Positions 2,915 through 62,223 of a DNA stretch of 64,000 nucleotides are shown here, one piece after another. Under the pieces are notes generated by a model. It had not been told where the DNA came from, did no database searches, and saw only the letters and a list, made by a program, of their open reading frames with translations. A program made the position numbers and the translations under genes. The DNA is from a virus. Lineage: Duplodnaviria > Caudoviricetes. How positions within the stretch are numbered: the first letter of the stretch is position 1; each line of letters begins with the position of its first letter. The stretch spans positions 21,703-85,702 of IMG/VR virus record IMGVR_UViG_2690315746_000001. The stretch is one strand, 5' to 3'.

Positions 2915-2944
2915 GACCCTCAGATATGTACGAAACGTACGGCC

Positions 2945-3451
2945 TCACAGGGTCACGAACGGGAATTCCGGGGGCGTGAACATGCGTGCCGGCACCATCT
3001 GCTCCGGCACGTCGGAGAGGGCGCGCAGCTCGAACGAGATGCTCTGGCCGGCGATCAGGTCCTTCACCCGGCCGATGAACCAGAACTCGGTGTTCGAGAT
3101 GATGAGCCCGCGCTCGAGGTGGTCACGCAGCACGATGAAGCGCTGGAGCACGACGCTGTCGAAGCGGCCGGCGAAGGCCGCCTCGTTGAACACGCCCATC
3201 GGGTTCATGAGCCGCAGGGTCGGGCGGTTCTTCTCCTCCTCGCTCGAGCGGGAGACCTCCGACATCTTGCAGGCCAGGTGGTCCCAGACCTTGCCGTTCC
3301 AGCGGGTGACGGAGCCCATGGGCCCGTCCCGGAAGCGCAGGATCGGCGTGCCGCCGTCCGGGACGTTGCGCAGGGCGACCTCGAAGAGGCTCACCTCGCT
3401 GTCCGCAGTGAGCTTCAGGCCTTCATCGACGTGGGAAGCGGGGACGCTCAT
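2945..3451 (-). CDS. Minor tail protein L-like (short, no Cys-rich C-terminal domain)
   Basis: Position between M-like and K-like genes; RPTLRLMN and ISFELRAL..VPARMF segments. Confidence 0.65.
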   Translation of the reverse strand: MSVPASHVDEGLKLTADSEVSLFEVALRNVPDGGTPILRFRDGPMGSVTRWNGKVWDHLACKMSEVSRSSEEEKNRPTLRLMNPMGVFNEAAFAGRFDSVVLQRFIVLRDHLERGLIISNTEFWFIGRVKDLIAGQSISFELRALSDVPEQMVPARMFTPPEFPFVTL

Positions 3452-3879
3452 GGCTGGATCAGAAGCTCGATGTCGAAGGGATCGACCTGGTGGACGCGGT
3501 AGGCGGTGCCGTCCGGTGCGCGATAGCCGCCGACCTCGCCCGGGCTGCTGCCCGACTTCTTGGGCATGATGAGCGGCTTGTTGAACCGGACGATCACGGT
3601 GCCCAGGATCGGGTGCGGATAGTTGAATGGCTCGAACATCCGGTGGCGCTTGTAGAACTCGTCGAGCGCGCGGATGTTGAGCTGCGGCACCACGTCGGCG
3701 AGCATCGGCTCGCCGGCATAGCGCTGGAAGAAGAACATGGTCGGGAAGTTGAGGTGGACGATGACCTCGTCCGGGCCGAGCGGGCGGGCGGCGAAGCGGT
3801 AGCCCCGGCCGAACTTGATCGTCGAGCCGCCGGGGTATTCGTCATTCGGGCTGTGGTACGGGAAGTCGAAGGTCTCCAC
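3448..3879 (-). CDS. Distal tail protein M-like
   Basis: Directly downstream of tape measure; IKFGRGYRF, LDEFYKRH..FEPFNY resemble lambda M family. Confidence 0.7.
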   Translation of the reverse strand: METFDFPYHSPNDEYPGGSTIKFGRGYRFAARPLGPDEVIVHLNFPTMFFFQRYAGEPMLADVVPQLNIRALDEFYKRHRMFEPFNYPHPILGTVIVRFNKPLIMPKKSGSSPGEVGGYRAPDGTAYRVHQVDPFDIELLIQP

Positions 3880-3880
3880 T

Positions 3881-6800
3881 CTATCCTCCCGCAGCCACGC
3901 GCTTGATCAGCTGCTTGATGGTGCCGCCGCGCTGAATGTTCTCGCCGATCGCGAAGACGAAGTCGGAGGCGCCCGGCACCGGCACCTGATCGCGGTCGAC
4001 GACGTAGACGTTGGCGCTCGCCGAGGCGCCGCCGGCCATGCGCTTGGCGTCGACCTTCGGGGCCCGGTTCACCATCGTGTTGCCGAGCGCGTTGACCTGG
4101 TCGAGCGTGTCCCGGCCGACCGCGTCGACCGCGGAGCGGCGCAGCAGGTACTCGCCGGGCTGGGCCAGGATGAGCTTGCTGTCGCGCTGCGCGAGCGCCG
4201 CGTCGCTGCCCGGCACGCCGCCGCCGCCCGCCATGCGGATCGGGCCGCCGGAGGCCATGCCGCCGCCGAAGATCGACGAGAAGAACTTCCCGATGCCGTC
4301 GAACAGCCCGCCGCCAGCGCCCGCGCCGCCCTCGAGCCCGCCGAAGATCGACTTGAAGATCGAGTTGGTCAGGCTGCGCGAGATCTGCTGCATGAGCCCG
4401 CCGAGGATGTCGGTGGCGAACTTCTTCAGAGCGTCGCCGGCCTTCATCGAGCCGTTGAACAGGTTCACGAACAGATTGTCGAAGGCGTTGCCGATGACGT
4501 TCAGCTCGCCGGCCAGCAGCTTACGAGCCTCCTGGGTCTCGTCGACCAGCTTGCCCATCGGATCGCGGATACCGCGGGCCTTCTCGAAGTCGACGATCGC
4601 GCCCGACACCGCGTTGGACATCGACGGCCCCTTGGCGTCGAGGTCCCTCTTGGTGTTGACTGAGACGTCCGAGAGCGCCTGCTTGCGCTTCAGCTCGAGG
4701 AGCTTCTCCTGGATCAGGACCTGCTTCTCGGCCGGGCCGAGGCCGGCCGTCGCGGCGTCGGCGAGCGCCTTCTCGAGGACCGCGATCTGCTCGCGGATCG
4801 ACGCGCTCTCGCCCTCGAGCGCACGGCGCTCCTTGAGCTTGACCAGCTCCTGGTCGAGCTTGTCGATCTCGGCCTGCGGGACCTTGTTCTCGTTCTCGTC
4901 GAGCTTCAGGCTCTTGAGCTGCGCCTCGCGCCGGGCGATCTCCTGGTCGAGCACGCGCGTCGAGACCTTGCCGGCGGCGTCGGCCGCGGCGATGGCCTCC
5001 TTCTCGGCGAGCGCCCGGAACCGCTCGGTGATGGCGGTCCGGCCCTCCTCCTTCTGCTCGGGCGTGCGCGACTTGCTGTTCGCGTCCAGCTCGTCGGCCT
5101 TGAGCGCGCTCGCGTTCAGCCTGCCGTAGGCCGCAATGGCGCCGCTCGAGGCCTCCTTGACGGTGGCGACCTCGTTGGCCTTCGAGATCCGCGCCATCGC
5201 CGCGGCGATGCCGGCGGTCTCGGTCTTGTCCTGGAGGCGCAGCGAGGCGAGCAGCGCCTGATCGGCCTTCTGCTGCTCGATGGCGCCGACCCGGCGCTTG
5301 TCCTCCGCGTTCTCCTTGTCCAGCTTCCCCTTGTCCGCTTCCTCCTTGTCCTTCAGGACCTTAGCGGTGGTGGTGGTCAGCTTCTCCGAGGCCCTGGACG
5401 CCGTGGCGTACATGCCCTTCAGGATCTCGGTGAACTCGCCCGCCGTGATCGAGCCGGAGCGGCCCTTGGCGCCGTTGTTCTCGATCGCCGCGGCCGAGAC
5501 GAAGTCCCGGGCCGGCGAGTTCGGGTTGCGCAGCAGCCGGGTGCCGCCGGCCGCGCCCTGGTTGTGCAGGACGAACAGCTCGGCGTCGGTCGGGTCGCGG
5601 CCGAGCCGGTCCCGGAAGATCTTCGCGTTGTCGCGCGTGAAGTCGATCGCCGCCGGGACCTGGTTCTCGACGCTGAAGATGTCTCCCTTGCCGTACTTGC
5701 CCCAGGTGTTGACCCCACCCGGGTAGTCGTTGTTCATGAACTGGAAGAGGCCCTTGGCCCCGGAGGCGTTCTTCGCCCCCGGGTTCATGCTACTCTCCAG
5801 CTGGCCGAGGCCGAGCAGGTAGTTCACCATGCTGCCGGCGCCGGCCGCCCGGGCAGTCGTGATGACGCGCTCCGCGACCGAGCCGGCCGGCGCGGTGCGG
5901 CTGTCGGCCAGGATCTCGTTCGGGCTCGCCGCGACCTCGCGCTGCGCGTCGGTGGCGACCCGGCCCTTGGCGATGGTCGTCGCCTCGTCGAGCAGCTTGT
6001 TGATCTGCTCGACCAGCTCGCGCGCCTTCTCCGGCGTGGTCTGGGCGTCCTTGGCGATCTTCTCCAGCCGGGAGGCCTCGGCGCGCAGCTCCTGCTCGCG
6101 CGCCTTGTCGGCGTTCGCTGAGATGCGCAGGACCGCGTCCTCGATCCGGCGGCGTCGCTGGATGTAGTCCTCCTGCAGCTTCTCGAGCTTCGCCTTCGTC
6201 TCCCGGTCCAGCTCGTCGAGCTGGGTCTGGAGCCCGCTGTCGTTGGCGATCTGCTCGGGGGTCTTGCCGAAGGTCAGGATTTCGCGGCTGATGACGGCGT
6301 TCGCCTCCGTCAGCTCCTTGATCCGGTTCGTGACGCGCTCGAGGTCGGCCTGGCTGGTCGCCGTCTGGGCCTGCTTCGTCAGGGTCGCGATCTCGGCGTC
6401 GTTGCCCCGGCGCTCCGCCTGCGAGACCCTGACCGCCTCGGGGTTGAGGCTCTCGATCAGCTCGCGCAGCTCCTTGCTGGCGTTCTTCGCGATGGCGTCG
6501 AGCTTGCCGCGGACCGCCGCCAGTGCGGCTGCGATGTTCTCCTTCGTCTCGCCGCGCGCCAACATGGCGTCGCGCACGCCGTCCAGCTCGGCGAGCTGGC
6601 CCTTGGCCTCGTCGCCGGTGACGCGCAGCGTCGCCAGGAGCTGCTTGACGCGGACGTCGGGGCTGAGCCCCGGGGCACGCAGCACCGCCTCCTGATCGCT
6701 GGCGCGCTGAACCTTGAGGGCGTCGGCCCGGCGGTCGAGCGCGACCACCTCGGGGGAGGCCTCGAGCTTCTGGCGCCGGACCTCGTCCTGCCGGCGCTCC

Positions 6801-11991: not shown

Positions 11992-12095
11992 AGTCTCCGT
12001 TTACGGGTCACTGAACTATCCGTTGCAATATGATGATTGCCCCCCATTTGTCCAAAGACGGTTCCCTGAAAATCAGGGACAATGGGGAAGTCAAG

Positions 12096-15309: not shown

Positions 15310-15373
15310 GTTCGGCGGGTCTCCGGCAGCGGGGCGCCCGCTGTACTCAGCGTACAGCGGGCATGAGACACGA

Positions 15374-16591: not shown

Positions 16592-16708
16592 GGGTCCCGT
16601 ACTCCTCGGGGATGTGCTGGCGGTACGGAACGTACCTTCAGGATTAGACGCAGTTCAGGCTTCGGTTCGGGGCAAAATGTACTATTCGTACACTTTGCCC
16701 CGGGCGAA

Positions 16709-21699: not shown

Positions 21700-21960
21700 C
21701 CACTACGTGGCGGGCCCGGCGCCCGGGCGCGGACATCCCGGGGATGTCCGGTCCCTGCTCACGCATGTACGTTTCGTACATGCTGATTTCGGCAGCATAA
21801 TCAGGCATTTAGGTCCGCCAGTATTCGTCAGTCTTCCGGTATGTGGGGTCTCGGAGGGGTCCAGAAAAGCGGGATCAACTTCCGTACATCCCCGGGATGT
21901 ACGGCTTTCACCCGTCTGGAAAGTGAGGTAAGCCCCCACTATGTACGGAGACCGCAGCCT
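21700..21960. promoter_or_regulatory. Divergent control region between virion and replication operons
   Basis: Palindromes CGGACATCCC-G-GGGATGTCCG (21730-50), motif A (21766-80), CCGTACATCCC-C-GGGATGTACGG (21882-904). Confidence 0.65.
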
Positions 21961-22477: not shown

Positions 22478-22508
22478 TTTTGCCCTCCTCACGGTGTACG
22501 AAACGTAC

Positions 22509-22598
22509 ATGTCCCACCAGCTCCGACAGCTCATCTGGCTGACGATGGCCTTCCTGACGGCCTCCCTCATCCAGGACGTGATCAAGCTCGCATTCTAG
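22509..22598 (+). CDS. 29-aa hydrophobic peptide
   Basis: MSHQLRQLIWLTMAFLTASLIQDVIKLAF; ATG overlaps last base of motif A 22495-22509. Confidence 0.4.
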   Translation: MSHQLRQLIWLTMAFLTASLIQDVIKLAF

Positions 22599-25202: not shown

Positions 25203-25493
25203 ATGCTTACCGAAAGAGACCTGTACGGTTCGGACAACCCAACGATGCTGCTCTCGAGCCGATGCCGGACGCTGCCGGTGCCGGGCGCGACGATGACCTG
25301 CACGGTCGCCGAGCCGGCGGAGCCGGTCACCCTCGAGACGGTGGCCGCCGCGCTCGACGCGCTGACCGAGCAGCTGCCCCCGAACCCCCCTCCCCTCTTC
25401 GACCCGGACCGGGTGCTGATCTACGTGCCGCCCGGCGAGGACGCGGCCGAGGCCGCGCGGCGCTACCTGCGCTGGACCTGGGGCGCCCGCTGA
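25203..25493 (+). CDS. Hypothetical protein
   Basis: ORF track 96 aa; start uncertain. Confidence 0.45.
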   Translation: MLTERDLYGSDNPTMLLSSRCRTLPVPGATMTCTVAEPAEPVTLETVAAALDALTEQLPPNPPPLFDPDRVLIYVPPGEDAAEAARRYLRWTWGAR

Positions 25494-26174: not shown

Positions 26175-26208
26175 CGCGGATTGTACGAAACGGACAGGAC
26201 ACGGACCC

Positions 26209-27022: not shown

Positions 27023-27174
27023 GGGTCGTCTCCGGGGACGAGGGGAGGGGAGGGAAACTACTAGCAGTTTGCCCCCTGAAGATGGTACGGATCGTACAGC
27101 ATGCAAGAGCCTCGGACGCGAAAGTTCCCCTTGACTTCCGTGCGCAGTTCCCGGCAACTTCCGTCCGAGATCCA

Positions 27175-29009: not shown

Positions 29010-29849
29010 ATGAAGACAATGGCCGTTCGCACCGCTAACCCTGCCCTGACCTCTGACGCTGTTGCTAAGATCGGGTTCGACGCCCTGGTGGGCGCTGAGA
29101 ACTACAAAATCCACGCCTACAGCGCCTTTACCCTGCTATTCATGATGAATAGTGGTGTGGACCCGAAGCGGCTTCGGGCTAACCTCGCGGTGCGCGCCGC
29201 AGAGACGGGCGTTATCGCCGAAAATACCTGGCAGTCCTACGTCAAGGGCGTGGAGACGGCAGCCGACAAGTTCTCGACGCACCTGGCGTCGGACCCCGAG
29301 TTCCTGACCATACGGGATATGGGGCCGGAGGATGCGGTCGAGGCGGTGCGCCGGCTGTATGAGGCGGTCAACGTGGTGTCCGGGTCGGACATCCGGGAGT
29401 GGTCCAAGCTCGAAGGTTTCGAGCCCCTGGACAAGGCCGGGCTCAAGGCCAAGCGGGCGGCGGAAGCCAAGGCGCGCAAGCTCGCCGCTCAGAAGGCGGA
29501 AGCCGATGCGTTCTTCGCCAAGGCCCCTTGGGCCGGTGCGGAGGCGGAAGCCGGTGCGGGCGAGGCGGCCCCGGCGGACCCGATGGCGGCCCTGGCTGCC
29601 CTCCTCTCCACCCTGGACGAGGCATCCACCCTCAAGGCACTAGAGGCGGTCAACGCCCGGCTCGCGACCATGGCGAAGGCCAAGGCGGCGGCCCCGGCCC
29701 CCACCGTCGCCCCGGTCCTGGCGGACGACGCCACGCCGCACCCGCTTTCGGCCCTTGGCCGGGTCGTGCCGGCGAAGCTCAAGGGCGATGCCCTGGACAG
29801 CGCCGCGATGGCGGCCAAGCCCCCGGTGCGCCCGAACAAGGCGGCCTAG
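29010..29849 (+). CDS. Hypothetical early protein
   Basis: 279 aa, flanked by motif B at 28980 and 29866; distinct codon usage. Confidence 0.75.
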   Translation: MKTMAVRTANPALTSDAVAKIGFDALVGAENYKIHAYSAFTLLFMMNSGVDPKRLRANLAVRAAETGVIAENTWQSYVKGVETAADKFSTHLASDPEFLTIRDMGPEDAVEAVRRLYEAVNVVSGSDIREWSKLEGFEPLDKAGLKAKRAAEAKARKLAAQKAEADAFFAKAPWAGAEAEAGAGEAAPADPMAALAALLSTLDEASTLKALEAVNARLATMAKAKAAAPAPTVAPVLADDATPHPLSALGRVVPAKLKGDALDSAAMAAKPPVRPNKAA

Positions 29850-30679: not shown

Positions 30680-30711
30680 GCCCGGGGCCCTCTGTACGTT
30701 TCGTGCATGAA

Positions 30712-30973: not shown

Positions 30974-31033
30974 CCTCATCCCCGCCGCGCCTGCCCGCCT
31001 TCTGTTGTCCGTTTCGTACCGACTGAGGAGACC

Positions 31034-31639: not shown

Positions 31640-32026
31640 CCCGGCCATATCCGATATGGCTTGGCCGCGTAACGCTGCGGTAATCTTCAACCACGGCGTG
31701 AGCCGCCCGCCCGGTACGAAGCGGACACCAACCCCGATCGCGGGTGTCCGCCTCCTGACCCAAACGATGAATGATTGGTGAATGGGCAGGCCGAAAACGG
31801 CCGCAGGTCTGGTGAATAAGTGTTCATGGGACTGTGCATGTGTCCCACAAAGGCACACATATCTCCGAACGACCGCGGGCTGCCGCGCACACCGGCCCCT
31901 GGTATCCGTACAGCCGCGGATGTACGGTTCGTGCAGAAAGTTGCGCTGAACCACTACGTTCGGGTTGCGTACCCATCCAGATATGGGTATGTCCGCCACC
32001 TCCCCAGCAAGCAGAGGAGCAATCGA

Positions 32027-33763: not shown

Positions 33764-34288
33764 CCCAGGGGCCGCGCTAGACAGTCATTCAAATCCTCGG
33801 TGTAGTTGCATTCGTCATATCCAATATGGCCGAGACGGGTGGTGGTTCAGACGCGGGGCGCATTCTGGGTCCCTGATCTTTGTCCGACACGGTGCGTTCG
33901 CACTCTGCCGAGTATCGCTAGTACGAGCCGTACACAACCCCAGTTGTCAAGCGGCTGTGCCGTCGAACTAGGGTGATTCGCTGAAAAATCATTCAGGCAC
34001 CTACTGCAAAGAGGCGCCTGTGCCAACACACCAGGCCATGTGCCTGGGCTGTGCCTGGGCATCATTGGATGTCCGATCCGTACAACTTTTCCACTAGCGT
34101 CGTTGTAACCAAAGGGTTAAATGGAGCCCTACCACATGCGCCAGTCACCGGTGACGCCACAGCAAGAGGCCAATCTGCTCCTGATCGCCGACCAGGAACG
34201 CCGTCGAAAGGAGCGGGAGGCCCAGGCCGCCCAGCCCTTTCGCCGTGTCCGTGCCTGATTGTCCGAACCGTACCGAGGAGGCGACATC

Positions 34289-36430: not shown

Positions 36431-36500
36431 CGACCCCGCACCGGGCGCTTTCGCGCGCCCGGATCACAGTGTTCGCTTCGTACATGAAAGCATATCCGAT

Positions 36501-39856: not shown

Positions 39857-40108
39857 CGTTGTTCCTTAACCCTTCGGCGACGTTCTCCAGTGTCCCGGAA
39901 TCGGGACCTGCCACCTTGGCCCTAAGCGCCGTGGTTCGTCAATCGAGGGCCAGCAGCGCCCCACTACGTCCTCTCCGTACCCACTAGAGGCGAAACACAG
40001 GAGGAACACCCCCTTGCGTCCACTCTTATCACAATGTACGAAACGTACCAGGGAGGCCGCCGCAGGCATCCTCTGCGTCGAGCCACCACCAACACCCGGA
40101 GGGTGATC

Positions 40109-40195: not shown

Positions 40196-40217
40196 ACCAG
40201 ATTGTACGGAGCGTACC

Positions 40218-42429: not shown

Positions 42430-42526
42430 CTCTTCTGTAACAGTCTGACGCAGCCCGCGTTTGGACTTGTCTTTTACTCACTCTTAACTGTACGAAACGT
42501 ACAGCAACCCATAGAGGAACTACACC

Positions 42527-44662: not shown

Positions 44663-44737
44663 TTACCACGCCCGTCTCACGGGACGGGCGTGTCTTCCGT
44701 CTATTGTCCGAAACGTACAACCATACAGGATATGGTC

Positions 44738-46956: not shown

Positions 46957-47140
46957 CCGAGGACGACGCCGCCATCATGGCGGCTGCCGCGCTGGGGGCC
47001 GCACTCGGCCCCCTTCTTTTCCACCTGGCCTACTGGGCCTACTGGGCCTTCATGAGGGTCACCGGACGGCTGTGACGCCCTTCGTGTGTCTGCACCGCGC
47101 TGTCCGCTTCGTACAGCCAACCCTGAGAGGAACGACCCCC

Positions 47141-47803
47141 GTGTTCTTTCACTTCCGCCGCGTCTCGACCAACCGCAAGCTCGGCCCAATGCCGGCCGTC
47201 ATGGCTTCGCAGGAGACCTGCCGCTCCACCGGCTGCACGCTCATGGGCGCCGGCTGCTACGCCGAGCACGGCCCGGGCTCCATCATGTGGCGCGCCCTCA
47301 CCGCCGGCAAGGCGGTCAACCAGGTCACGCTCGAGCAGCTGCTCCACCTGATCCGGGCTTTGCCCAAGCGCATCAGGTGGAGGTACGGCACAGCCGGCGA
47401 TCTGCCTCCCAACCCGGCCGATGTGCTCGACCTGGCTAAGGCCAACGCGGGTCGTGAGGCCATTGTCTTTACCCACGGCAGATTGTACGAGACGTACAGG
47501 CAAGCCGCCTCCCTCGGCATGCACATCAACGTCTCGACCGACAGCGCCGCCCAGGCCGACGCCGTGCTCGACGCGGCGCCGGACATGAGCGTCGTCACCG
47601 TCCTGCCCTCCACCGCCGGCCGCGGCCGGCACCGCACCCCGGCCGGGCGCGAGATCGCGGTCTGCCCGGCCACCTACGCCGAGCGCGTGACGTGCTCGAC
47701 CTGCAACCTGTGCTCCCGGCCGCGCCCGCGCGGCGTGATCGTCGGCTTCCCGGCGCACGGCACCCGGCGGCGCATGATCGACCAGAGGCTCGCCAGCGCA
47801 TGA
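47141..47803 (+). CDS. Cys-rich conserved phage protein (Gp88-like)
   Basis: NRKLG...TC...C......CYA, RYGTAGD, VCPA...TCSTCNLC...IVGFPAHG. Confidence 0.7.
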   Translation: MFFHFRRVSTNRKLGPMPAVMASQETCRSTGCTLMGAGCYAEHGPGSIMWRALTAGKAVNQVTLEQLLHLIRALPKRIRWRYGTAGDLPPNPADVLDLAKANAGREAIVFTHGRLYETYRQAASLGMHINVSTDSAAQADAVLDAAPDMSVVTVLPSTAGRGRHRTPAGREIAVCPATYAERVTCSTCNLCSRPRPRGVIVGFPAHGTRRRMIDQRLASA

Positions 47804-49033: not shown

Positions 49034-49034
49034 C

Positions 49035-52403: not shown

Positions 52404-52568
52404 AGCTGTCCGTATCGGACAGGCACATCCGGGCTACGAAATCGGGAGAGAGGGGGCTTGCCAAGAGCGGAAGCCCCGGCTATCTCGATCAGGCCGATGT
52501 ACGGAACGTACATCGGACATCACCAGCACCAAGCTCCAATCATCAACCTCCAATCTCCAGAGGCTACC

Positions 52569-53282: not shown

Positions 53283-53310
53283 TCGGGTCCACCAACACCC
53301 GCCAGTAGAG

Positions 53311-53348
53311 AGGCCCGCACCGCACTCGTGGTGCGGGCCTTTTTCTTT
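53311..53348 (+). terminator. Intrinsic terminator
   Basis: AGGCCCGCACC-gcactcgt-GGTGCGGGCCT-TTTTCTTT. Confidence 0.85.
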
Positions 53349-53377
53349 GTACGCATCGTACAACATCGGAGCCAACC

Positions 53378-53728
53378 GTGTCCGAGACTACCCTCAGCCC
53401 CGCGACCCTCGCCGTCATCAAGCGCGAGGCGAACATCAACAACCGACCATTGGTCCGGCACCTCACTGGTGCCGCCAAGTTCCTGGGCCTCGGCGCCCTC
53501 GTCCACGCCTGGCTGATCGGGCCTGAGTTCAGCACCCACTCCCTGTGGAGCTGGGGCTACGTCCTCGCCTGGCCGGTCCCGCTGCTGTTCTGGCTGCTGA
53601 GCTGCCTGCTCGCCTTCGTCGGCTACGCCGCCGCCCTGGCGCTCGCCTGCGGCTTCCTCTGGTGGGCCGCCATGGAGATCCGCGACTGGCGCGACCGCCG
53701 CGACGACCAGCGGTGGCCTGGTCTATGA
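53378..53728 (+). CDS. Membrane protein
   Basis: 116 aa with 2-3 TM segments. Confidence 0.65.
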   Translation: MSETTLSPATLAVIKREANINNRPLVRHLTGAAKFLGLGALVHAWLIGPEFSTHSLWSWGYVLAWPVPLLFWLLSCLLAFVGYAAALALACGFLWWAAMEIRDWRDRRDDQRWPGL

Positions 53729-54240: not shown

Positions 54241-55067
54241 CCATTCACATCTACGACGGCATGGCGGTGCTGCGCCGCCGCTTCGACGATCACCTCCCCG
54301 GGCCGTTCGGCCGGGGACCCCGCAGCGTCTTCAACGAGATGCTCGCGATCAAGCCGGGCGATGTCGCCATCTGGTGCTTTGAGGGCCGGGGCGCGAAGCA
54401 GGCCCGCCAGAAGTTCTTCCCCGGCTACAAGGACCGCCCGTCGCAGATGACGGACGGCCTGCACGCCCTGGTCAACCTGACCCGGGACGCGCTCAAGCAC
54501 ACCAAGGCGCTGCAGGTCGCCGTGCCCCAGCGCGAGGCCGATGACGTGATCGGCCACCTGTGCGGGATCTACGGCATCGGCACCGGCGACGACATCACCG
54601 TCCACACGGTCGACCGCGACCTGCTCCAGCTCGCCGGCCCGAAGGTGTGGATCGACGGGGTCAAGCCGCTGAAGATCATCGTCGACAAGGACGACGTGAA
54701 GAAGGACGTCGTCCTCACCCCCAGCGAGATCCGCCTCTACAAGGCGCTCTGCGGCGATCCCTCCGACCGCATCCCCGGCATGCCCGGGTTCGGCCCGAAG
54801 GCCTTCGCCGCCTGCAATCGGGCCTGGCTCAACAGCGCCCTGCAGCAGCTCGTCGCCGGGCACCCGAAGCCCGCCCTGTTCGAGCACGCCGGGGTCAAGC
54901 CGGCGATGGCGCAGCGTATGTGCAACCCCGAGCAGGCCGAGCAGCTGCGGGTCTTCTGGAAGATCGTCGGCTTCCTGCCGCTCCCGGACGACTGGCAGTC
55001 CAACATCATCACCGGCAAGCCCGACCGGGCCGCCGGCAGCGCTCTCCTCCAGCAATTCATGCACTGA
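54237..55067 (+). CDS. 5'-3' exonuclease / flap endonuclease
   Basis: IYDG, YKDR, EADDVIG, DRDLLQL, GDPSDRIPGMPGFGPK. Confidence 0.92.
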   Translation: MTIHIYDGMAVLRRRFDDHLPGPFGRGPRSVFNEMLAIKPGDVAIWCFEGRGAKQARQKFFPGYKDRPSQMTDGLHALVNLTRDALKHTKALQVAVPQREADDVIGHLCGIYGIGTGDDITVHTVDRDLLQLAGPKVWIDGVKPLKIIVDKDDVKKDVVLTPSEIRLYKALCGDPSDRIPGMPGFGPKAFAACNRAWLNSALQQLVAGHPKPALFEHAGVKPAMAQRMCNPEQAEQLRVFWKIVGFLPLPDDWQSNIITGKPDRAAGSALLQQFMH

Positions 55068-55078
55068 GGACCGCCCCC

Positions 55079-58030
55079 ATGAACATGCAGACCCGCATCC
55101 AGGTCGAGCCACAAACCGTCCTGGTCGACGCCCGCAACCCGGAGGTGATCGACGAGATCGAGGCGCTGATCCAGCGCTCCACCTTCGTCGGCTTCGACCT
55201 CGAGACCGAGGACAGCGAGCGCCACGAAGGCCTCAACCGCTACTGCAAGTACAACGAGGACGGCTTCAAGTCCGATAAGTCGAAGACCGTGTTCGACTGG
55301 CGCCGCACCACCATCTGCGGCGCGTCGTTCTACTCCGAGGAGGCCCCGGACCGGGCCTATTACATCAACTTCGGCCACCTCGACGCCGAGAACCGGCTGC
55401 CTGTCGAGCTGCTGCTGCGGCTGCTGAAGGCGCTGCCCGAGGGCTCGCACTTCATCGCCCACAACTCGGCCTTCGAGCAGACGGTGATCAAGGCCGTCCT
55501 CGACTACGACTTCCCGCCCGGCTCCATCATCTGCACCATGACGCAGGCGGTGTCGGCCTATGGCCCGGACACCTACAGCCAGGACGCCTGGCGCGCCGCC
55601 GGCCAGGGCGACATCGGCCAGCTCGTCGAGGGGCTGATCCGGCACGCCTCCGGCTTCAACCGCGAGACCGGCGAGATGTCGCCCGCGCTCTCGGACCTGG
55701 TGTTCAAGATCGTCGGCAAGTCGTCGAAGGCCTCGTTCTCCTGGAACGGCTTCGTCAACGCCATCGCCTACGGCTACGGCCTGAAGCAGGCGGTGCGCTC
55801 GCACTTCGGTGTCCAGATGCGGACATTCGAGGAGACCCTCGACGGCGAGGCCCACATGGGCCTGGTCACCGGCGAGCAGGTCGCGGCCTACGGCGCCGAC
55901 GACGCCTACTGGGCGGTGCGGCTGTTCCGCTTCCTGCTCACCTACATGATGCGCAACGGCGGCAAGCCGCTGGTCGACACGTTCTTCCACCAGGAGAACG
56001 TGATGCCGGCGATCTTCGCTTCGATCGCGATCGGCGGCATGCGCGTCAACGCGCCAGCCATCCGGCAGCGCACCGAGGCCGAGCGCGTCACCGCCGCCCA
56101 GATCCTGCGCGAGATGAAGGCCGCGGCGAGGAACCTGCGCTTCCCCGACGAGCCCAACGCCGAGCTGATGCGGCGTGAGAGCTGGTACGGCCCCTCGAAG
56201 GACGGCAAGAAGCTCGGCTACCAGACCTACCGCGCCAAGGTGCATGCCTGGCTCGACGCGGACGACTGCGCGGACGATTACGAGCAGCTGCTCCAGGTCC
56301 GCGGGCCGGTCAGCAACGGCTGGGCGACCGAGCGCGGCGTCAACGAGAAGAAGCTGCTCGGGGTCAACCTCGCGCACTACATGCCGGTGCGGACGATCCT
56401 CTACGACCTCCTCGGCTGCAAGCTCGTGGTGTCGAAGGGCAAGGTCGCCTCGGACGGCGAGGCGCGCGGCCGGGTCGTCGACCGGCTGAAGGACGGCAAG
56501 CACCTCGGCCGCGAGGAGATCCGGCAGGCCTGGGCCGAGCTGCAGGCCGATCTGCACGTCCGCATCGCGGCCGGCGGCGAGGAGGGCCTGGCGGCCGGCG
56601 TCGTGCTCGAGGAGCACACCGCGCGCATCGAGCGGATCGAGGCGGCCTGGACCGCCAAGGACAAGCCCTCGCGCGAGGACCTCGAGCCCTTCGCGATCCA
56701 CCACAACCGGCACGCGCTGGCGGTCATCGACTGCATCAACCGGCTGTCGGGCGTCGAGCAGCGCATGAAGCTGTTCCTCACCCCCTACAGCATGCTCGTC
56801 GACCCGGAGACGGGCCGCATGTACCCGCAGGTCACCAGCCTGCTGGCGACGCGCCGCATGGCGGGCTCGAACCCCAACCCCATGCAGCTCGGCAAGCGCG
56901 GTGAGGCCGCCTACGTGCGAGGCTTCTACCTCGGCGACCACGACGACCACCTCATCGTCTCGCTCGACTGGTCGGGCGTGGAGCTGGTCGAGATCGGCGA
57001 GTTCTCCGGCGACCCGAAGTTCTTCGAGGCCTTCGGCCAGATCCCGCACCAGGATCTGCACGCCGGCACCGCGACCGCGCTGCTGGCGCTCGACTGCCCG
57101 GGCATGAACATCGAGCTGTTCAAGTCGCTCAAGACCATGACCTCGTGGAACGAGTGGCTGTCGGACAATCACGGCAAGGCCGAGCGCCTGCCGCGCCTGA
57201 TGACGAACCTCAAGGGTGAGTTGCTGGCAAGCAACAAGGCTTACGGTTACTGGCGAACCGTGTTCGGAAAGGAGGCGAACTTCAACTATTTCTACTCCGG
57301 CTGGCTCGCGACGATCGGCGAGCGCGCCGGCTGGTCGCAGACCAAGACGGCCGACGCCACCAACGCCTACCGCGACCAGTTCCCGGTCGCGGAGCAGTGG
57401 CGCGTTGACCAGATCGCCAACGTCGGCATGGCCGGCTTCGTCACCCTGCCGGACGGCCACCGCTACACCCGCTTTGAGGCCACCATGACGTGGTCCTCCG
57501 AGTGGTGCGATAAGTTCCTCCTCGATACCCTGGGCGGCGAGAACTATAACGCCGTCATCCGCTGGATCATGCGCAAGATCCAGAAGCGCGCTGGCAATCA
57601 GACGGTCAACGCGATCATTCAGGGTACTTGCGCTACACTCGCGAAGCGCTCGATCGTCCGCACGATCCTGTTCTTCCGGTCCCTCGGCTGGACCGACCGC
57701 GAGTTCCGCTTCCTGGTCCCGATCCACGACGAGCTGGTCTGGTCGGTCCACCAGGATCTCGTGGTGCCGTTCGTCCGCAACGCGCACCGCATCATGATCG
57801 ACCACGGCGACATCTTCAAATCCTGCAAGCTCGACAGCTCACCGGCGATCGGTGTGACCTTCGAGCCCTGGCACGAGAAGAAGGCCTACGGCGGCCAGAT
57901 CGAGCTGTTCGAGCCCGAGGCCGCGGTCGTCGGCAAGGAGCGCGCCGGCAAGCGCCTCGACGACCAGGGCATCCTCGACGTGGTCGAGTACCTGAAGCAG
58001 CAACGCATTCGCATGAGGGAAGCCGCGTAA
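55079..58030 (+). CDS. polA: Family A DNA polymerase with 3'-5' exonuclease
   Basis: FDLET, AHNSAFE, YGADDA; motif A LDWSGVELV, motif B RTVFGKEANFNYFY, motif C IHDEL. Confidence 0.93.
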   Translation: MNMQTRIQVEPQTVLVDARNPEVIDEIEALIQRSTFVGFDLETEDSERHEGLNRYCKYNEDGFKSDKSKTVFDWRRTTICGASFYSEEAPDRAYYINFGHLDAENRLPVELLLRLLKALPEGSHFIAHNSAFEQTVIKAVLDYDFPPGSIICTMTQAVSAYGPDTYSQDAWRAAGQGDIGQLVEGLIRHASGFNRETGEMSPALSDLVFKIVGKSSKASFSWNGFVNAIAYGYGLKQAVRSHFGVQMRTFEETLDGEAHMGLVTGEQVAAYGADDAYWAVRLFRFLLTYMMRNGGKPLVDTFFHQENVMPAIFASIAIGGMRVNAPAIRQRTEAERVTAAQILREMKAAARNLRFPDEPNAELMRRESWYGPSKDGKKLGYQTYRAKVHAWLDADDCADDYEQLLQVRGPVSNGWATERGVNEKKLLGVNLAHYMPVRTILYDLLGCKLVVSKGKVASDGEARGRVVDRLKDGKHLGREEIRQAWAELQADLHVRIAAGGEEGLAAGVVLEEHTARIERIEAAWTAKDKPSREDLEPFAIHHNRHALAVIDCINRLSGVEQRMKLFLTPYSMLVDPETGRMYPQVTSLLATRRMAGSNPNPMQLGKRGEAAYVRGFYLGDHDDHLIVSLDWSGVELVEIGEFSGDPKFFEAFGQIPHQDLHAGTATALLALDCPGMNIELFKSLKTMTSWNEWLSDNHGKAERLPRLMTNLKGELLASNKAYGYWRTVFGKEANFNYFYSGWLATIGERAGWSQTKTADATNAYRDQFPVAEQWRVDQIANVGMAGFVTLPDGHRYTRFEATMTWSSEWCDKFLLDTLGGENYNAVIRWIMRKIQKRAGNQTVNAIIQGTCATLAKRSIVRTILFFRSLGWTDREFRFLVPIHDELVWSVHQDLVVPFVRNAHRIMIDHGDIFKSCKLDSSPAIGVTFEPWHEKKAYGGQIELFEPEAAVVGKERAGKRLDDQGILDVVEYLKQQRIRMREAA

Positions 58031-58311
58031 TGTCAAGCAAGATTTTGGCCGACTTCAATACGCTTGTTTCGCAAGCAAGCGGTACGGCCGAGGACTATTT
58101 CGCCAAAGCCTACCGCGAGGTCTTTAGCGAGACGTCCCGCTACTCGGATCTGACGCAGGCGCAGAAGGTGCAGATTGTGATCGAGATGGCCAAGGTGGCC
58201 GCCTCGGACTTCAACACGGCCTGCACGACGCTGGGCATGCAGCATATCGCCGAAGCCATCGACGGTTTCGTCACGGCCTACGAGAACTTCAAGCACGGGG
58301 AAGAGGCGTGA
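58030..58311 (+). CDS. Hypothetical protein
   Basis: TAATG coupling; MSSKILADFNTLVSQ. Confidence 0.6.
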   Translation: MSSKILADFNTLVSQASGTAEDYFAKAYREVFSETSRYSDLTQAQKVQIVIEMAKVAASDFNTACTTLGMQHIAEAIDGFVTAYENFKHGEEA

Positions 58312-58622
58312 GCACGAACGAGAAGCCAACCTCCGACGTTCAGGTGGAGTGCCTCCACTGCCGGCTGCAGGCCGCCTACGAAGCCTGGGTCGACGAGTAC
58401 ACGCAGAAGGTTGGCGAGCCGCCGGCTCTCAACACCATGGGGAGGCACGTCGGCGGCTTCCTCGGCGAGATGACCAGCATCGCGCTCGAGGCTTGCGACG
58501 GCGACCACGACGCCATGACCGCCTTCTCCAAGGCTCTGGTGGATGGGCAGCTCGCCCAGAAGCGCGCCGAGGAAGAAGCGGCAGCCGAGCCGACCGAAGC
58601 CAACCCGAACACCCGCCACTGA
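58308..58622 (+). CDS. Hypothetical protein
   Basis: 104 aa, CLHC motif. Confidence 0.6.
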   Translation: MSTNEKPTSDVQVECLHCRLQAAYEAWVDEYTQKVGEPPALNTMGRHVGGFLGEMTSIALEACDGDHDAMTAFSKALVDGQLAQKRAEEEAAAEPTEANPNTRH

Positions 58623-58632
58623 GGACCGCACC

Positions 58633-59739
58633 ATGCTCGGCAAGACCATCTTCAAGCGGGACACCAATGCCCGCATCCGCCGCTGGTTCTTCGAGGTCGA
58701 CGAGGCTGCCGGCGCCTGGCGCACCCACAGCGGCCTAGTCGACGGCGAGACCGTCACGTCCGGCTGGACGAGCTGCACCCCGAAGTCGAAGCCGACGCCC
58801 GCCGAACAGGCCCTGTTCGAGGCCGAGGCCGAGATGGGCAAGAAGCTCGAGCGCGACTACGCCCTGACGATCGAGAGCGTGGACGAGCCGCGCGACTTCG
58901 GCGGCGCGGTCATGCTCGCCCACACCTACAAGGAGTTCCCGGCCGGGCAGCGGGTGTTCAGCCAGCCGAAGCTCGACGGCATGCGCTGCAAGGTGAACCG
59001 CTTCGGCATGTGGTCGAGGACCGGCAAGCCGATCGTCTCGTGCCCGCACATCTTCGCCATCCTGGCGCCGGCATTCGTGCGGACCCCCGATCTGGAGCTT
59101 GACGGCGAGCTGTACAACCACCAGCTCAAGGACAACTTCAACAAGCTGATGAGCGTGCTGCGGAAGTCCAAGCCCACGGACGCCGACATCGCGGAAGCGG
59201 CTTCCGTTGTCCAATACCATTTGTACGATACGTACAGACCTGCTAAGGGTTTCGAGGCGCGCAGCTCCATTCTGGAGCTGTTCGTTGCGGGGCTCGACGC
59301 GCCCGAGATCCAGCTCGTCCCGACGACGCCGATCGCGTCCCTCGAGCAGCTGGACCGGGCCTACGGCACCTACCTCGAGGACGGCTACGAAGGGCAGATG
59401 GTTCGGCTCGACACCCCCTACGAGCGCAAGCGCAGCAAGGGCCTGCTCAAGCGCAAGGAGTTCGAGACGGCCGAGTTCGAGCTGGTCGCGATCGAGGAGG
59501 GCAACGGCAACTGGGCCGGGCTCGCCAAGCGGGTCCGCTTCAAGCTCGAGGACGGGCGCGAATGCGGCGCCGGCATCCGGGGCTCGGCCGAGCACGCCAA
59601 GGCGCTGCTCGAGCAGGCCCCGAGCCTCACCGGGCGCCCGGTGACGATCCGCTCCTTCGCCCGCACGCCGGACGGCATGCCCCGCTTCCCCGTCGCGATC
59701 GACTTCGATCGCCCCGACCACATCGAGAAGGCCGCCTGA
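58633..59739 (+). CDS. lig: ATP-dependent DNA ligase
   Basis: QPKLDGMRC, LDGELY, YHLYD, EGQMVR, LLKRK, PRFP. Confidence 0.93.
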   Translation: MLGKTIFKRDTNARIRRWFFEVDEAAGAWRTHSGLVDGETVTSGWTSCTPKSKPTPAEQALFEAEAEMGKKLERDYALTIESVDEPRDFGGAVMLAHTYKEFPAGQRVFSQPKLDGMRCKVNRFGMWSRTGKPIVSCPHIFAILAPAFVRTPDLELDGELYNHQLKDNFNKLMSVLRKSKPTDADIAEAASVVQYHLYDTYRPAKGFEARSSILELFVAGLDAPEIQLVPTTPIASLEQLDRAYGTYLEDGYEGQMVRLDTPYERKRSKGLLKRKEFETAEFELVAIEEGNGNWAGLAKRVRFKLEDGRECGAGIRGSAEHAKALLEQAPSLTGRPVTIRSFARTPDGMPRFPVAIDFDRPDHIEKAA

Positions 59740-59742
59740 GCC

Positions 59743-60105
59743 ATGACGACCGAAGTTGCCTCCGCCCTCACCGCCTACCTGGCGAAGAACCCATGCGCCC
59801 CCGCTGACATCCCGAAGGTCGCGACCGCGATCCGCGAGGCGCTCGGGGTGCTGCCGTCCAAGGCCACCGCCGATCAGGTCAAGGCGTCGATCACGCCCGA
59901 CCACCTCATCAGCTTCGAGGACGGCAAGAAGTACAAGGTCCTGACGCGCCACCTCAGTGGCCGCGGCCTGACCATGGACGAGTACCGCGAGAAGCACGGC
60001 CTGCCGGCGGATTACCCGGTCTGCGCCCCGAACTACTCCGCCCGCCGTTCCGAGCTGGCGCGGGCGAACGGGCTCGGCCAGCTGCGCCGCGACGCCAAGG
60101 GCTAA
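59743..60105 (+). CDS. mucR: MucR/Ros-family regulator
   Basis: SITPDHLISFEDGKKYKVLTRHL..GLTMDEYREKHGLPADYP..APNYSARRSELA..GLG. Confidence 0.93.
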   Translation: MTTEVASALTAYLAKNPCAPADIPKVATAIREALGVLPSKATADQVKASITPDHLISFEDGKKYKVLTRHLSGRGLTMDEYREKHGLPADYPVCAPNYSARRSELARANGLGQLRRDAKG

Positions 60106-60192
60106 CCCGGGCCCCGGCCGGGTGTGCTCTTCGGAGCCCCCGGCCCCCATATCGTGTGGCCCAACCCCCGCCCAGGCGAGATCTCCTACATC

Positions 60193-62223
60193 ATGTTGTC
60201 GAACCAACTGCCATCGGTGCGTGCCCAGTTCACGCACCGCCGTACCTACCTGCGTCCGCTGAACGAGGAGGGCACGGTCTTCGAGACGAACGAGGCGGCG
60301 CACCGGCGCGTCCTCGGTCACCAGCGCTGGCTCTGGGAACGCCAGCTCGGACGAGCCCTCAACGTCCGCGAGTGGGGCGAGCTGCAGGACCTCGGGGACC
60401 TGATGATCGAGAAGAAGGTCTCGATGTCCGGCCGCGTGAAGTGGATGGGCGGGACCGCGCTGGTCAAGGAGCGCGCCGCGGGCGCCTTCAACTGCTCCTT
60501 CTCGGTCGCCTACACCCCGGCCGATCTGGTCGACATTTTCTGGCTGCTCCTCAACGGCTGCGGCGTCGGCTTCAAGCCCGTCACGGGCCTCCTCTCCGGT
60601 TTTCCGTTTTCGATCCAGAATGTACGGATCGTACAGTCCGAGCGCACCGACAAGGGCGGCGCCGAGGACAGCTCGGAGCACATCGACCTCAAGGCCGGCA
60701 CCTGGCGCATCACCTTCGGCGACAGCGCGAAGGGCTGGGCCAAGGCGCTCGGCATGCTGTTCGGCGAGAAGCCGCGCGTCAGCGAGCTGATCCTCGACTT
60801 CTCGGAGCTGCGCCCCGGCGGCAAGCGCCTGCGCGGCTACGGCTGGATCTCGTCGGGCTGGCAGCCGCTGGCGCACGCCATGGGGCGCATCGCCTCCCTG
60901 ATGGTCGGCGCGGCCCACCGGAACCTGACCCGCGGCGAGATCATCGACATCGTCAACCACCTCGGCACCGTGCTCTCGAGCCGGCGCTCGGCGCAGATCT
61001 GCCTCATCGAGACCGAGGCGACCACGCTGGCCGAGCTGATGGCGCAGCTGCAGTGGTACGTCGACTTCAAGACGGACCGCTGGGAGCGCGGCGAGGGCCA
61101 GCGCGAGCAGTCGAACAACTCGATCGGCTTCCTCAACAAGCCCGAGCCCGAGGTGATCGAGGAGCTGCTGCGCCGCATCCTGCCGACCGGCGAACCGGGT
61201 TTCGTCAACGTCGCCGAGGCCCGCCGGCGGGCGCCGGAGATGGAAGGGCTCAACCCCTGCGCCGAAATCCTGTTGCCGAACAAGGGCTTCTGCAATTTGG
61301 TTCAGGTGGTGTGGCATCGGTTCAACGGCGATTTCGAGGGCCTGATGCGGGCCCAGTATCTCGCCGGCCGCGCCAACTACCGGCAGACCGCGGTCTCCAT
61401 GCGGGACGGCGTGCTGCAGCTGCAGTGGAACGACGCGCAGAAGCTGCTGCGGCTGTGCGGCGTCAGCCCCACCGGCGCGGTGGCCTGGGAGGGCATCGAG
61501 AGCCCCGAGATGCTCGAGGCCGTGCGTGACGCCGCGATTGCCGGCGCCAACTCGATGGCCGATGATTTCGGCACGCCGCGCCCGCGGCGCGTCACGCAGG
61601 TCCAGCCGGCCGGCACCAGCTCGAAGGCCCTGGGGCTCGAGGGCGACGAGGTCCACGAGGGCGCCCACCTGGCTCTGAGCCGGTGGATCTTCAACTGGAT
61701 CAACTTCCCGGCCAACGATCCGATGCTGGAGGCCTTCGCGGCGGCCGGCTACGACATGAAGCCGAACCCCAACGACCCGACCGGCGTCATCGTCTGCTGG
61801 CCGGTCGAGTACCCGGCCTCGCCGAAGTTCACCCAGGTGCTCGACCCGGAGACGGGCCACCACCTCGAGGTGAACCAGGAGAGCGCCATCAGCCAGCTGG
61901 AGCGCTACCGGCTGCTGATGAAGCACTACGTCGAGCACAACTGCTCGATCACGGTCTCGTTCGACGAGAGCGAGATCCCCGCTATGGTCCAGTGGTTCAT
62001 GGACCACTGGGACGAATATGTCGGTGTTTCGTTCTTGAAGCGCAACAATCCGTTTGCGACCGCGGAGGACCTCGGCTACAAGTACCTCCCGCAGCAGTGT
62101 GTCTCGCGCGAAGTGTACGAAGAGTACACCGCGAGACTTCTGCCGATCGACATCTCGGAGGATAAGTCCTCCGAGCTGCTTCAACTCGACGAATGCTCGT
62201 CGGGCGGATGTCCTGTTCGCTAG
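60193..62223 (+). CDS. nrdJ: Class II (B12-dependent, monomeric RTPR-type) ribonucleotide reductase
   Basis: RRTY, FNCSF, RRSAQI, NPCAEILL, FCNL, QPAGTSS, C-terminal CSSGGCPVR; no beta-subunit gene adjacent. Confidence 0.9.
   Translation: MLSNQLPSVRAQFTHRRTYLRPLNEEGTVFETNEAAHRRVLGHQRWLWERQLGRALNVREWGELQDLGDLMIEKKVSMSGRVKWMGGTALVKERAAGAFNCSFSVAYTPADLVDIFWLLLNGCGVGFKPVTGLLSGFPFSIQNVRIVQSERTDKGGAEDSSEHIDLKAGTWRITFGDSAKGWAKALGMLFGEKPRVSELILDFSELRPGGKRLRGYGWISSGWQPLAHAMGRIASLMVGAAHRNLTRGEIIDIVNHLGTVLSSRRSAQICLIETEATTLAELMAQLQWYVDFKTDRWERGEGQREQSNNSIGFLNKPEPEVIEELLRRILPTGEPGFVNVAEARRRAPEMEGLNPCAEILLPNKGFCNLVQVVWHRFNGDFEGLMRAQYLAGRANYRQTAVSMRDGVLQLQWNDAQKLLRLCGVSPTGAVAWEGIESPEMLEAVRDAAIAGANSMADDFGTPRPRRVTQVQPAGTSSKALGLEGDEVHEGAHLALSRWIFNWINFPANDPMLEAFAAAGYDMKPNPNDPTGVIVCWPVEYPASPKFTQVLDPETGHHLEVNQESAISQLERYRLLMKHYVEHNCSITVSFDESEIPAMVQWFMDHWDEYVGVSFLKRNNPFATAEDLGYKYLPQQCVSREVYEEYTARLLPIDISEDKSSELLQLDECSSGGCPVR

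Follow-up and report, generated by a model that had tools for sequence, protein, structure and literature searches.

Why does one short palindrome recur, mostly just before start codons, throughout the genome of a siphophage? The DNA analyzed here (the window) is a stretch of 64,000 nucleotides, bases 21703-85702 of an 85,702-bp IMG/VR virus record called G000; window positions are used throughout, unless genome coordinates are indicated. An earlier note on this DNA had listed 29 copies of TGTMCG-N3-CGKACA and proposed that they form a genome-wide operator network. Our analysis indicates that the sites are probably promoter-embedded operators of a single phage-encoded dimeric regulator, shared by a temperate clade of Methylobacterium-type siphophages.

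The consensus was found at all 29 listed positions, with 14 exact copies, 14 copies with one mismatch, and one copy (16622) with two; the list was valid throughout, but one exact match, at 29377, had been missed. The window contains 15 exact 15-mers, compared with a mean of 0.01 in 100 dinucleotide shuffles (largest value 1), and 38 matches with up to two mismatches, compared with 8.35 in shuffles (largest value 15). A de novo palindrome count defined the conserved unit as the core GTACG-N3-CGTAC with an A/T-rich center, which occurs in the 85,702-bp record in 16 exact copies (0 in 30 shuffles) and in 32 copies when one mismatch is allowed (1.07 in shuffles). The central base is A or T in 93 of 96 oriented sites, and the information content per column is equal in both half-sites, that is, the site is a palindrome. 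The half-sites vary independently: the A/C variant at the third base is uncompensated in 34 cases and compensated in 6, where independence predicts approximately 37 and 4. The center shows no strand bias relative to genes (A 44 and T 35 at position 5; A 51 and T 42 at position 6), and the window scans found no Rfam family and no tRNA. Independent half-site variation, the unbiased center, and the lack of an Rfam match favor a two-fold symmetric protein acting on double-stranded DNA over an RNA hairpin.

The core is conserved among related phages. The IMG/VR relatives of G000 have terL proteins 85-89% identical to its own; approximately 55% of G000 aligns with G001, G002, and G004 at approximately 76% nucleotide identity, and about one third with the fragment G003. 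A scan of species genomes identified terL relatives in two records, titled Methylobacterium jeotgali and Methylorubrum suomiense, the latter an isolate assembly in which the phage, G007, forms a separate 84,253-bp contig of phage size. The exact 15-mer is nearly missing in the IMG/VR relatives (0-1 copies each), and the exact core occurs 19, 7, 5, and 12 times in G001, G002, G003, and G004, respectively (0 in shuffles), and 25 times on the G007 phage contig; the complete 84-kb phages of Methylobacterium and Methylorubrum carry 16-25 exact cores each. The base flanking the core is T in 50 of 64 half-sites of G000, the only genome with T flanks, and G in the other five genomes (50/56, 27/36, 14/22, 36/46, and 51/76 half-sites). 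Caulobacter phage Seuss (PMC4591317), the closest isolated phage with a terL 43% identical, has no exact core and two copies with one mismatch, and no core was found in the distant relatives L016 (terL 63% identical, 16.5-kb fragment) and L015.

The motif belongs to the phage and not to its hosts. In the Methylorubrum suomiense-titled carrier, 25 of 26 exact cores lie on the 84,253-bp terL contig and one in the remaining ~5.4 Mb, whereas in the Methylobacterium jeotgali-titled carrier all 19 are confined to three contigs, one being the terL contig. Among 200 further host-family genomes, 140 lack the core, and the maximum of 7 copies consists of identical sequences, probably one repeated element; a reversed-pattern control occurs 4-52 times per genome in the same set. 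Equal abundance in host chromosomes is thus not observed, and the near absence of the core there makes a host regulon unlikely.

Most sites lie outside genes. A codon-usage gene caller made for this analysis predicted 101 genes in G000 (90.6% coding), and 25 of 32 core sites fall in the 8,092 non-coding nt, compared with 7 in 77,898 coding nt. The non-coding sites are mostly 0-30 nt before a start codon, as the earlier note had described. In the six genomes together, 116 of 150 sites lie outside called genes (coding fraction 79-91%), about half of these 116 at most 36 nt upstream of a called start. In several ortholog groups, namely those of the Holliday-junction resolvase, a 29-31-aa peptide preceding the primase, the 98-aa gene 40218, and gene 31034, the core ends only 0-4 nt before the start codon, too close for a Shine-Dalgarno sequence to fit in between. 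Terminator-like hairpins immediately precede several sites (genome position 469; window positions 36470, 44705, and 53348). On either strand, a site stands before most transcription units, those of virion and late genes as well as those for replication, and this placement, together with the phage specificity, upholds the view of a genome-wide operator-like network. Intergenic or promoter placement and phage specificity are also among the properties that mark dispersed repressor operators.

The palindrome is accompanied by a directional box. In G000, TG[TC]C is found 15 nt before the core in 13 of 34 sites and faces the local genes in 13 of 13 (background 0.0089 per position; binomial 1.7e-18); its forms, TTGCCC, TTGTCC, GTGTCT, and similar (TTGYCY-like), stand exactly 10 nt upstream of the site (at -16). 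With the sites of six genomes oriented to the nearest gene, the box occurs at 28 of 96 sites on the gene side versus 2 of 96 on the other side, a count that leaves aside 34 intragenic sites, those close to contig ends or separated from a start by over 200 nt, and three exact duplicates, and in which orthologous sites are non-independent. A second class has TTGNNN at -22 or -23; it comprises the resolvase site in all five genomes and the sites upstream of rIIA in G000, G001, and G007, the latter two representing two of the four relatives with a site orthologous to 42489. This class has the layout TTGNNN, 17 nt, TACGWW, 6-7 nt, and start codon. Since the TTG of the box is kept in every genome while the palindrome flank changes, we read the box as a putative host-type -35 element.

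The earlier note had also reported at least four copies inside genes (47484, 59222, 60621, and 62114), to which 29377 is added, and had taken their presence as a sign of selection on the DNA itself. In synonymous-codon shuffles, the three exact intragenic copies compare with a mean of 1.10 (16 of 200 shuffles reach 3), and the seven copies with up to one mismatch compare with a mean of 9.51 (180 of 200 reach 7); the count is not above expectation, and the argument from mere presence fails. Intragenic copies mostly encode Tyr-x-x-Tyr with the preferred TAC codon. At two positions, however, rare codons are used: the T..A flanks are made by TTG and AGG codons at 47484 and by TTG and AGA codons at 59222, TTG accounting for 2.7% of Leu codons and AGR for 2.7% of Arg codons. 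In relatives with G..C flanks, CGN (flank C) specifies this Arg at both positions; the two sites are conserved in position among the relatives, and the -16 box at 59222 stays TTGYCC (TTGCCC in relatives) despite a Val-to-Ala change. The codon choices thus indicate DNA-level selection at 47484 and 59222.

In the mechanism that we propose, the operator unit would consist of the 13-bp core GTACG-WWW-CGTAC and one flank base on each side (T and A in G000), located within or just downstream of the promoter of nearly every transcription unit, with the -35-like box (TTGYCY or TTGNNN) 10 or 16 nt upstream on the gene-reading side and the start codon 0-30 nt downstream. Spacer, -10 position, and transcription start would all lie under a bound dimer, and the unit would thus be switched off. 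In the -22 class, the left half-site may double as the -10 element of a leaderless transcript whose initiation the dimer would block. Acting through this many sites, one protein could keep the entire genome silent or set its timing, probably during lysogeny. Since the direction comes from a separate -35-like box, the sites would be promoter-embedded operators rather than elongation blocks.

Two of the encoded regulators stand out as candidate binders. The most likely one, at somewhat less than an even chance, is the Crp/Fnr-like protein encoded at 32987-33763, a protein of 258 aa with the Pfam domains cNMP_binding (residues 47-136) and HTH_Crp_2 (residues 170-234), both above cut-offs, whose profile aligns over positions 41-234 to the mycobacterial CRP, GlxR, NtcA, and CAP chains. 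Its gene opposes the direction of its neighbors and lies beside sites 33920, 34070, and 34260. The protein is present in every relative covering the region (G001, G003, and G007), the orthologs being 35-38% identical in all pairs with an invariant RRPS[IV]TE in the recognition helix. Of 13 substitutions specific to G000 (positions at which the three others agree), 8 fall in the helix-turn-helix (HTH) and wing (residues 183-223), corresponding to 8 of 21 positions there versus 5 of 39 elsewhere (Fisher p = 0.028). The DNA-reading region has therefore changed in the sole genome with T flanks, a suggestive coincidence of the kind of motif-HTH co-variation that the earlier note had proposed to look for, seen here as a single event. 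CRP reads DNA through R180, E181, and R185, and the aligned residues of the Crp-like protein are R, P, and E; a different specificity is therefore expected. The sensor domain could tie the switch to a small molecule. No relative of the protein was found in GenBank phage records; a search of IMG/VR with the single protein gave no match and with the alignment only the known relatives, a metagenome scan returned one locus, identical to G001, and 400 host-order genomes contained only ordinary Crp/Fnr proteins with 22-30% identity. As an extension of this assignment, which we regard as unlikely in full, the protein would be a ligand-sensing master switch: the palindrome and the host -35 box would form a dedicated cassette for nearly all units, including leaderless genes in which the left half-site serves as the -10 element, and a small molecule acting through the sensor domain could flip the 85-kb, possibly plasmid, phage as one.

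The second candidate, the XRE-type protein among those that the earlier note had named, is the two-HTH protein (47800-48261; 153 aa), with a GerE/LuxR-like N-terminal and an XRE-like C-terminal HTH. That something other than these two binds the sites we consider unlikely, if slightly more probable than the two-HTH protein. A tblastn search of G001, with its 19 exact cores, gave no match to the MarR-like protein, which had also been named earlier, and the 'Arc-like' ORF (11982-12275) has no family match. The HicB-like protein occurs only in G000 among the genomes searched, and the Ros/MucR protein, a zinc-finger protein of a family typical of Alphaproteobacteria (Pfam E = 5e-29), is missing from G001, G002, and G004 and present in G007.

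Several points weigh against operators of a Crp-like repressor placed in this way. For the -16 class, a 17-bp spacer would put the -10 element on WCGTAC, a hexamer without the A that usually occupies the second place; the predicted start of this class falls downstream of some Shine-Dalgarno sequences, e.g., at 34260, and a plausible layout of -35, 17 nt, TACGWW, and start is seen only in the -22 class. The gene starts come from a simple codon-usage caller and are provisional. Four small RNA-Seq libraries of one study contain this phage with 0-1 differences as assembled contigs, which span sites 42489, 44705, and 47101/47484 and cannot show transcript starts. Regarding the Crp-like protein, its covariation with the flank rests on one flank change in one lineage, and its gene in G003 lacks a near upstream site (nearest ~1.3 kb), so that autoregulation is not evident everywhere. 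Known Crp/Fnr sites have an even central spacing (N4 or N6), whereas the spacer here is odd (N3 between GTACG halves or N5 between TGTAC halves). Finally, the two-HTH protein is equally conserved, and four relatives retain the site that lies ~300 nt ahead of its start.

Two alternatives retain protein binding. The same operators may be bound by the two-HTH protein, either alone or jointly with the Crp-like protein, in the manner of CI and Cro at their common operators; the XRE domain would then read the palindrome and the N-terminal HTH perhaps the directional box. We consider this doubtful. The protein is conserved in all relatives covering the region, with a nearly invariant XRE helix (FSNRV.LS.MEQGYHDF), but neither HTH shows a G000-specific change despite the flank change in G000, an ortholog (29% identity over 76% of the protein) is encoded by Seuss, which has no exact core, and the box, with its TTG kept in all genomes, resembles a host -35 element. 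The geometry of the -16 class also leaves some weight on an activator reading, in which box and palindrome form a phage-specific promoter class and the bound protein activates transcription or replaces a missing -10 element. Sites heading nearly every unit, late genes included, and a -35-like box at a fixed distance without a recognizable -10 would suit such promoters, as would the scarcity of TTGACA/TATAAT promoters, which are at or near chance in 40 kb of early genes (window 21001-61000; 5 versus 1.7 expected and 0 versus 1.2), in a scan with E. coli hexamers that may not suit this host. Crp-type class I and class II activation uses a site 41-61 bp upstream of the transcript start, which is incompatible with start codons 0-30 nt after the site, and we know of no activator acting from the -10/start position; we therefore regard activation as improbable.

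Two further explanations dispense with a phage repressor. At the RNA level, the palindrome would form a hairpin of 5-6 bp with a 3-nt loop before start codons, serving as a processing site, translational operator, or stabilizer, and both the distance of 0-30 nt to start codons and the extension of copies 15342 and 16678 into longer stems would suit such a role. The preponderance of uncompensated half-site variants, the unbiased center, and the lack of an Rfam match stand against it, as do sites in divergent regions and a box of DNA-promoter type, so that a hairpin function appears very unlikely; a terminator scan listed no motif copy and found hairpins before sites 47101 and 53348. We find it still harder to credit, and give it hardly any weight, that the sites serve a host regulator or take part in nicking, packaging, or partition, e.g., by the protein of gene 31034 or a ParA partner. 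The site-dense region does encode a protein with a His-Me/HNH-like pattern whose orthologs begin immediately at a site, and a ParA-like gene lies 141 nt downstream of another site. Yet the host chromosomes are almost free of the core, placement at start codons with a promoter-like box is not expected of nicking, packaging, or centromere sites, and centromere sites are usually clustered.

Operators of one phage regulator dispersed over the genome are of a known general kind; the sequence, the phage group, and the type of candidate binder differ from the known cases. In Cluster A mycobacteriophages (L5, Bxb1), tens of repressor sites, termed stoperators, lie in early and late operons and silence the prophage; they are asymmetric, 13-14 bp long, oriented with transcription, and proposed to stop elongation via the immunity repressor. 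The comparison with stoperators made in the earlier note is a loose one: the dispersal is shared, whereas the site described here is palindromic with an A/T-balanced center, and direction comes from a separate box, co-directional in 13 of 13 cases in G000. The c repressor of phiC31 recognizes a symmetric operator (CIR) in many conserved intergenic copies, also at the repressor gene itself; that phage is actinobacterial, and its repressor family and operator sequence are different. P1 C1 binds dispersed asymmetric 17-mer operators on a large unintegrated prophage with a partition system, and resembles the present case in using one repressor and scattered operators; its sites are asymmetric, C1 is not a Crp/Fnr protein, and a plasmid state of G000 is only presumed. 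CRP and FNR operators (TGTGA-N6-TCACA and TTGAT-N4-ATCAA) share with the palindrome the two-fold symmetry suited to a winged-HTH dimer and, in the G000 form, the TGT...ACA ends, and differ from it in central spacing.

The closest published counterpart known to us in form is the 17-bp repeat TGTTCGG-N3-CCGAACA of Cluster O mycobacteriophages, with 34 copies in Corndog and no function or binder assigned (PMC4351075). The same publication describes stoperators as well. The repeats share a perfect inverted repeat with a 3-bp center (mostly TTT/AAA in Cluster O), a half-site beginning with TGT.CG, and more than 30 dispersed copies, many of them intergenic (about a third in genes in Cluster O), with a center that gives no orientation (PMC4351075). 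They differ in architecture, 6-N3-6 here and 7-N3-7 there, with a 2-bp difference in half-site spacing, and the hosts and phages are unrelated; for Cluster O, neither a close link to translation starts nor lysogens are reported (PMC4351075). A precedent for in silico prediction is SPBRE of SPbeta, a 15-bp repeat in promoter regions that was predicted decades before ChAP-seq and EMSA showed it to be the MrpR site (PMC10516654). MrpR is described as having a recombinase-like fold, about ten reported sites, and a Gram-positive host, unlike the system considered here (PMC10516654).

Genome-wide operator networks are thus known from few phages (L5/Bxb1, P1, phiC31, SPbeta), and the palindrome adds a clean, conserved example in little-studied alphaproteobacterial phages related to Caulobacter phage Seuss; our literature search found no publication that deals with the motif or with this group of Methylobacterium phages. 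With T flanks in G000 and G flanks in the relatives as a natural specificity variant, and with two concrete candidate binders, the proposal is directly testable. Should the Crp/Fnr-like protein prove to bind the sites, it would represent a novel class of phage master regulator that carries its own sensor domain. Given the use of Methylobacterium and Methylorubrum in biotechnology, a repressor-operator pair that is compact, orthogonal, and missing from the host chromosome could also be a useful tool.

The clade appears to be temperate. Tyrosine integrases are encoded by G001 (83046-83435), G002 (68301-68792), and G004 (66989-67480), and a 476-kb metagenome contig contains an identical copy of the G001 sequence beside tRNA-His (L046 3120-3196), with the host genes at this locus being queuosine-synthesis (queA-like) and chloride channel genes. 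A domain-model scan of G000 found no tyrosine integrase or serine recombinase domain, and tblastn found no relative of the G001 integrase in G000 or G007; both phages encode a ParA-like protein. The suggestion in the earlier note of an unintegrated prophage is therefore plausible for G000, which may be kept as a plasmid, but does not extend to its three close relatives with an integrase. The clade seems to contain integrating and non-integrating members.

The coordinates of the sites and of the regulator genes are collected in Table 1.

Table 1. Palindromic sites and candidate regulator genes in the window (box positions are relative to the site)
Feature	Position	Strand	Match	Box or flanking sequence	Context
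Site	2927..2941	minus	core exact, one flank off		12 nt upstream of NlpC/P60 start (2914; Pfam NlpC_P60); 3 nt past stop of preceding gene
Site	15342..15356	minus	1 mismatch	GTGTCT at -16, minus strand; GCCCGC/GCGGGC flanks lengthen stem	between major head gene and next gene
Site	16622..16636	minus	core exact, G..C flanks		30 nt upstream of major head start (16591)
Site	16678..16692	no strand	1 mismatch		within longer palindrome (GGGGCAAA...TTTGCCCC)
Site	21766..21780	no strand	exact	CTGCCG at -16 towards terL	divergent region of terL (start 21689, minus) and gene 22019 (plus)
Site	22495..22509	plus	exact	TTGCCC at -16	ATG of conserved 29-aa ORF directly after core; precedes primase-polymerase gene
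Site	25222..25236	plus	exact to 15-mer consensus, one half C variant		8 nt before ATG; 19 nt inside doubtful 96-aa ORF of gene caller
Site	26182..26196	plus			7 nt after stop codon, 12 nt before start of gene 26209
Site	27084..27098	plus	core exact	TTGCCC at -16	141 nt upstream of ParA-like gene (27240-27902)
Site	29377..29391	no strand	exact, both halves C variant		intragenic; absent from earlier list; may be chance
Site	30693..30707	no strand	1 mismatch		within 606-nt stretch without called gene
Site	31006..31020	plus		CTGCCC at -16	13 nt before gene 31034 (His-Me/HNH-like pattern); ortholog start codon 0-2 nt after core in three relatives
Site	31713..31727	no strand	1 mismatch		intergenic
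Site	31921..31935	plus	1 mismatch		91 nt upstream of MarR-like gene (32027)
MarR-like protein	32027-32443				
Crp/Fnr-like regulator	32987-33763	minus			
Site	33920..33934	no strand	core exact	TTGACA at -17 towards Crp/Fnr-like gene; CTGCCG at -16 opposite way	157 nt upstream of Crp/Fnr-like start (33763)
Site	34070..34084	no strand			second site of divergent Crp-like/34289 region
Site	34260..34274	plus		GTGTCC at -16; GAGGAGG between site and start 34289	third site of Crp-like/34289 region; 14 nt before start 34289
Site	36470..36484	plus	1 mismatch		directly after hairpin; 16 nt before gene 36501, whose start codon sits in a motif B copy (see text)
Site	40035..40049	plus	core exact	TTGCGT at -22	
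Site	40203..40217	plus	core exact		GTG start of conserved 98-aa gene 40218 1 nt after core; ATG 1 nt after core in three relatives
Site	42489..42503	plus	exact	TTGTCT at -23	upstream of rIIA-like gene
Site	44705..44719	plus		GTGTCT at -16	after hairpin; 18 nt before rIIB-like gene
Site	47101..47115	plus		GTGTCT at -16	25 nt before DUF7227 gene; terminator-like hairpin at 46994-47013
Site	47484..47498	plus	exact	TTGTCT at -22	inside DUF7227 gene (L-Y-E-T-Y-R); ~300 nt upstream of two-HTH gene; position kept in 4/4 relatives holding DUF7227 gene
Two-HTH protein	47800-48261	plus			
Site	52407..52421	plus	both halves C variant	TTGCCC at -16	3 nt after helicase stop
Site	52498..52512	plus	exact		56 nt before gene 52569-53282
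Site	53348..53362	plus	exact		directly after terminator-like hairpin (53320-53336 and T run); 15 nt before gene 53378
Site	59222..59236	plus	exact	TTGTCC at -16	inside DNA ligase gene (L-Y-D-T-Y-R)
Ros/MucR protein	59743-60105				
Site	60621..60635	plus	exact		inside ribonucleotide reductase gene; G007 site at same place
Site	62114..62128	plus	1 mismatch	GTGTCT at -16	near 3' end of reductase gene; position kept in four relatives

The window has a G+C content of 66-73%, and G000 shows a siphophage layout according to Pfam and PHROGs. The minus strand of window 1-21.7 kb encodes terL, portal, major head, tape measure (2188 aa), and NlpC/P60 tail proteins, and a long plus-strand block after 21.7 kb encodes the primase-polymerase, ParA-like, rIIA/rIIB-like, helicase, DNA polymerase A, and ligase proteins together with a class II ribonucleotide reductase and ThyX. 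A conserved 29-31-aa ORF (MSHQLRQLIWLTMAFLTASL...; window 22510-22599) begins at the end of site 22495, before the primase gene; it is also found in G001 and G007, is hydrophobic, and may encode a small membrane peptide from a leaderless transcript. The protein of gene 31034-31639, within the region densest in sites, and its orthologs have 170-215 aa and the pattern CW.WTG...GY...RV.Y...RC..D.CVSP.H, which resembles a His-Me/HNH-endonuclease-type zinc pattern by eye only and has no Pfam match. In the RNA-Seq libraries mentioned above, examined over window 40001-60000, depth over 52674-53340 (gene 52569-53282) is ~10-20 times higher than in most other bins in all four runs, a hint only, as such contigs give no gene ranking, strands, or transcript ends and DNA carry-over is possible.

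A second palindrome, motif B (CATATCSGATATG), often within GC...GC, occurs in the window at 35962-35974, 36491-36503, 33816-33828, 31646-31658, 30222-30234, and other positions. G000 has 11 exact copies (18 with up to one mismatch), and exact copies number 7 in G001, 11 in G003, and 13 in G007; the 3' ATG of the motif is often the start codon of the next gene, e.g., at 35972 and 36501. L016 carries six copies of a motif B-like palindrome, CCAAAAC-N-GTTTTGG, and Seuss carries five distinct copies of TTTACCT-N-AGGTAAA (718, 1516, 68939, 76123, and 82487), with two more in the second terminal repeat, which overlap annotated ribosome-binding sites, including that of rIIA. Neither the L016 nor the Seuss palindrome could be tied to a regulator.

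In host chromosomes the core (mostly 0-1 copies per genome) is approximately 20-fold rarer than the reversed-pattern control; the hosts seem to avoid GTAC-containing palindromes, and the phage retains ~50 GTAC inside its sites. GANTC, the CcrM/HinfI-type site, is nearly missing: it occurs 8 times in the 85.7 kb of G000, compared with ~260 predicted from base composition by rough arithmetic, and 0-8 times in G002, G003, G004, and G007; G001 has 42. A single open frame of 4079 aa (window 1-1530, minus, continuing to genome position 10993) follows the tail assembly genes at the position of the central tail fiber, its Seuss counterpart having 1577 aa by coordinates. Outside the window, genome positions 1770-4924 (locus L036) encode SbcD- and SbcC-like subunits of a palindrome-specific nuclease, beside a resolvase and an exonuclease.

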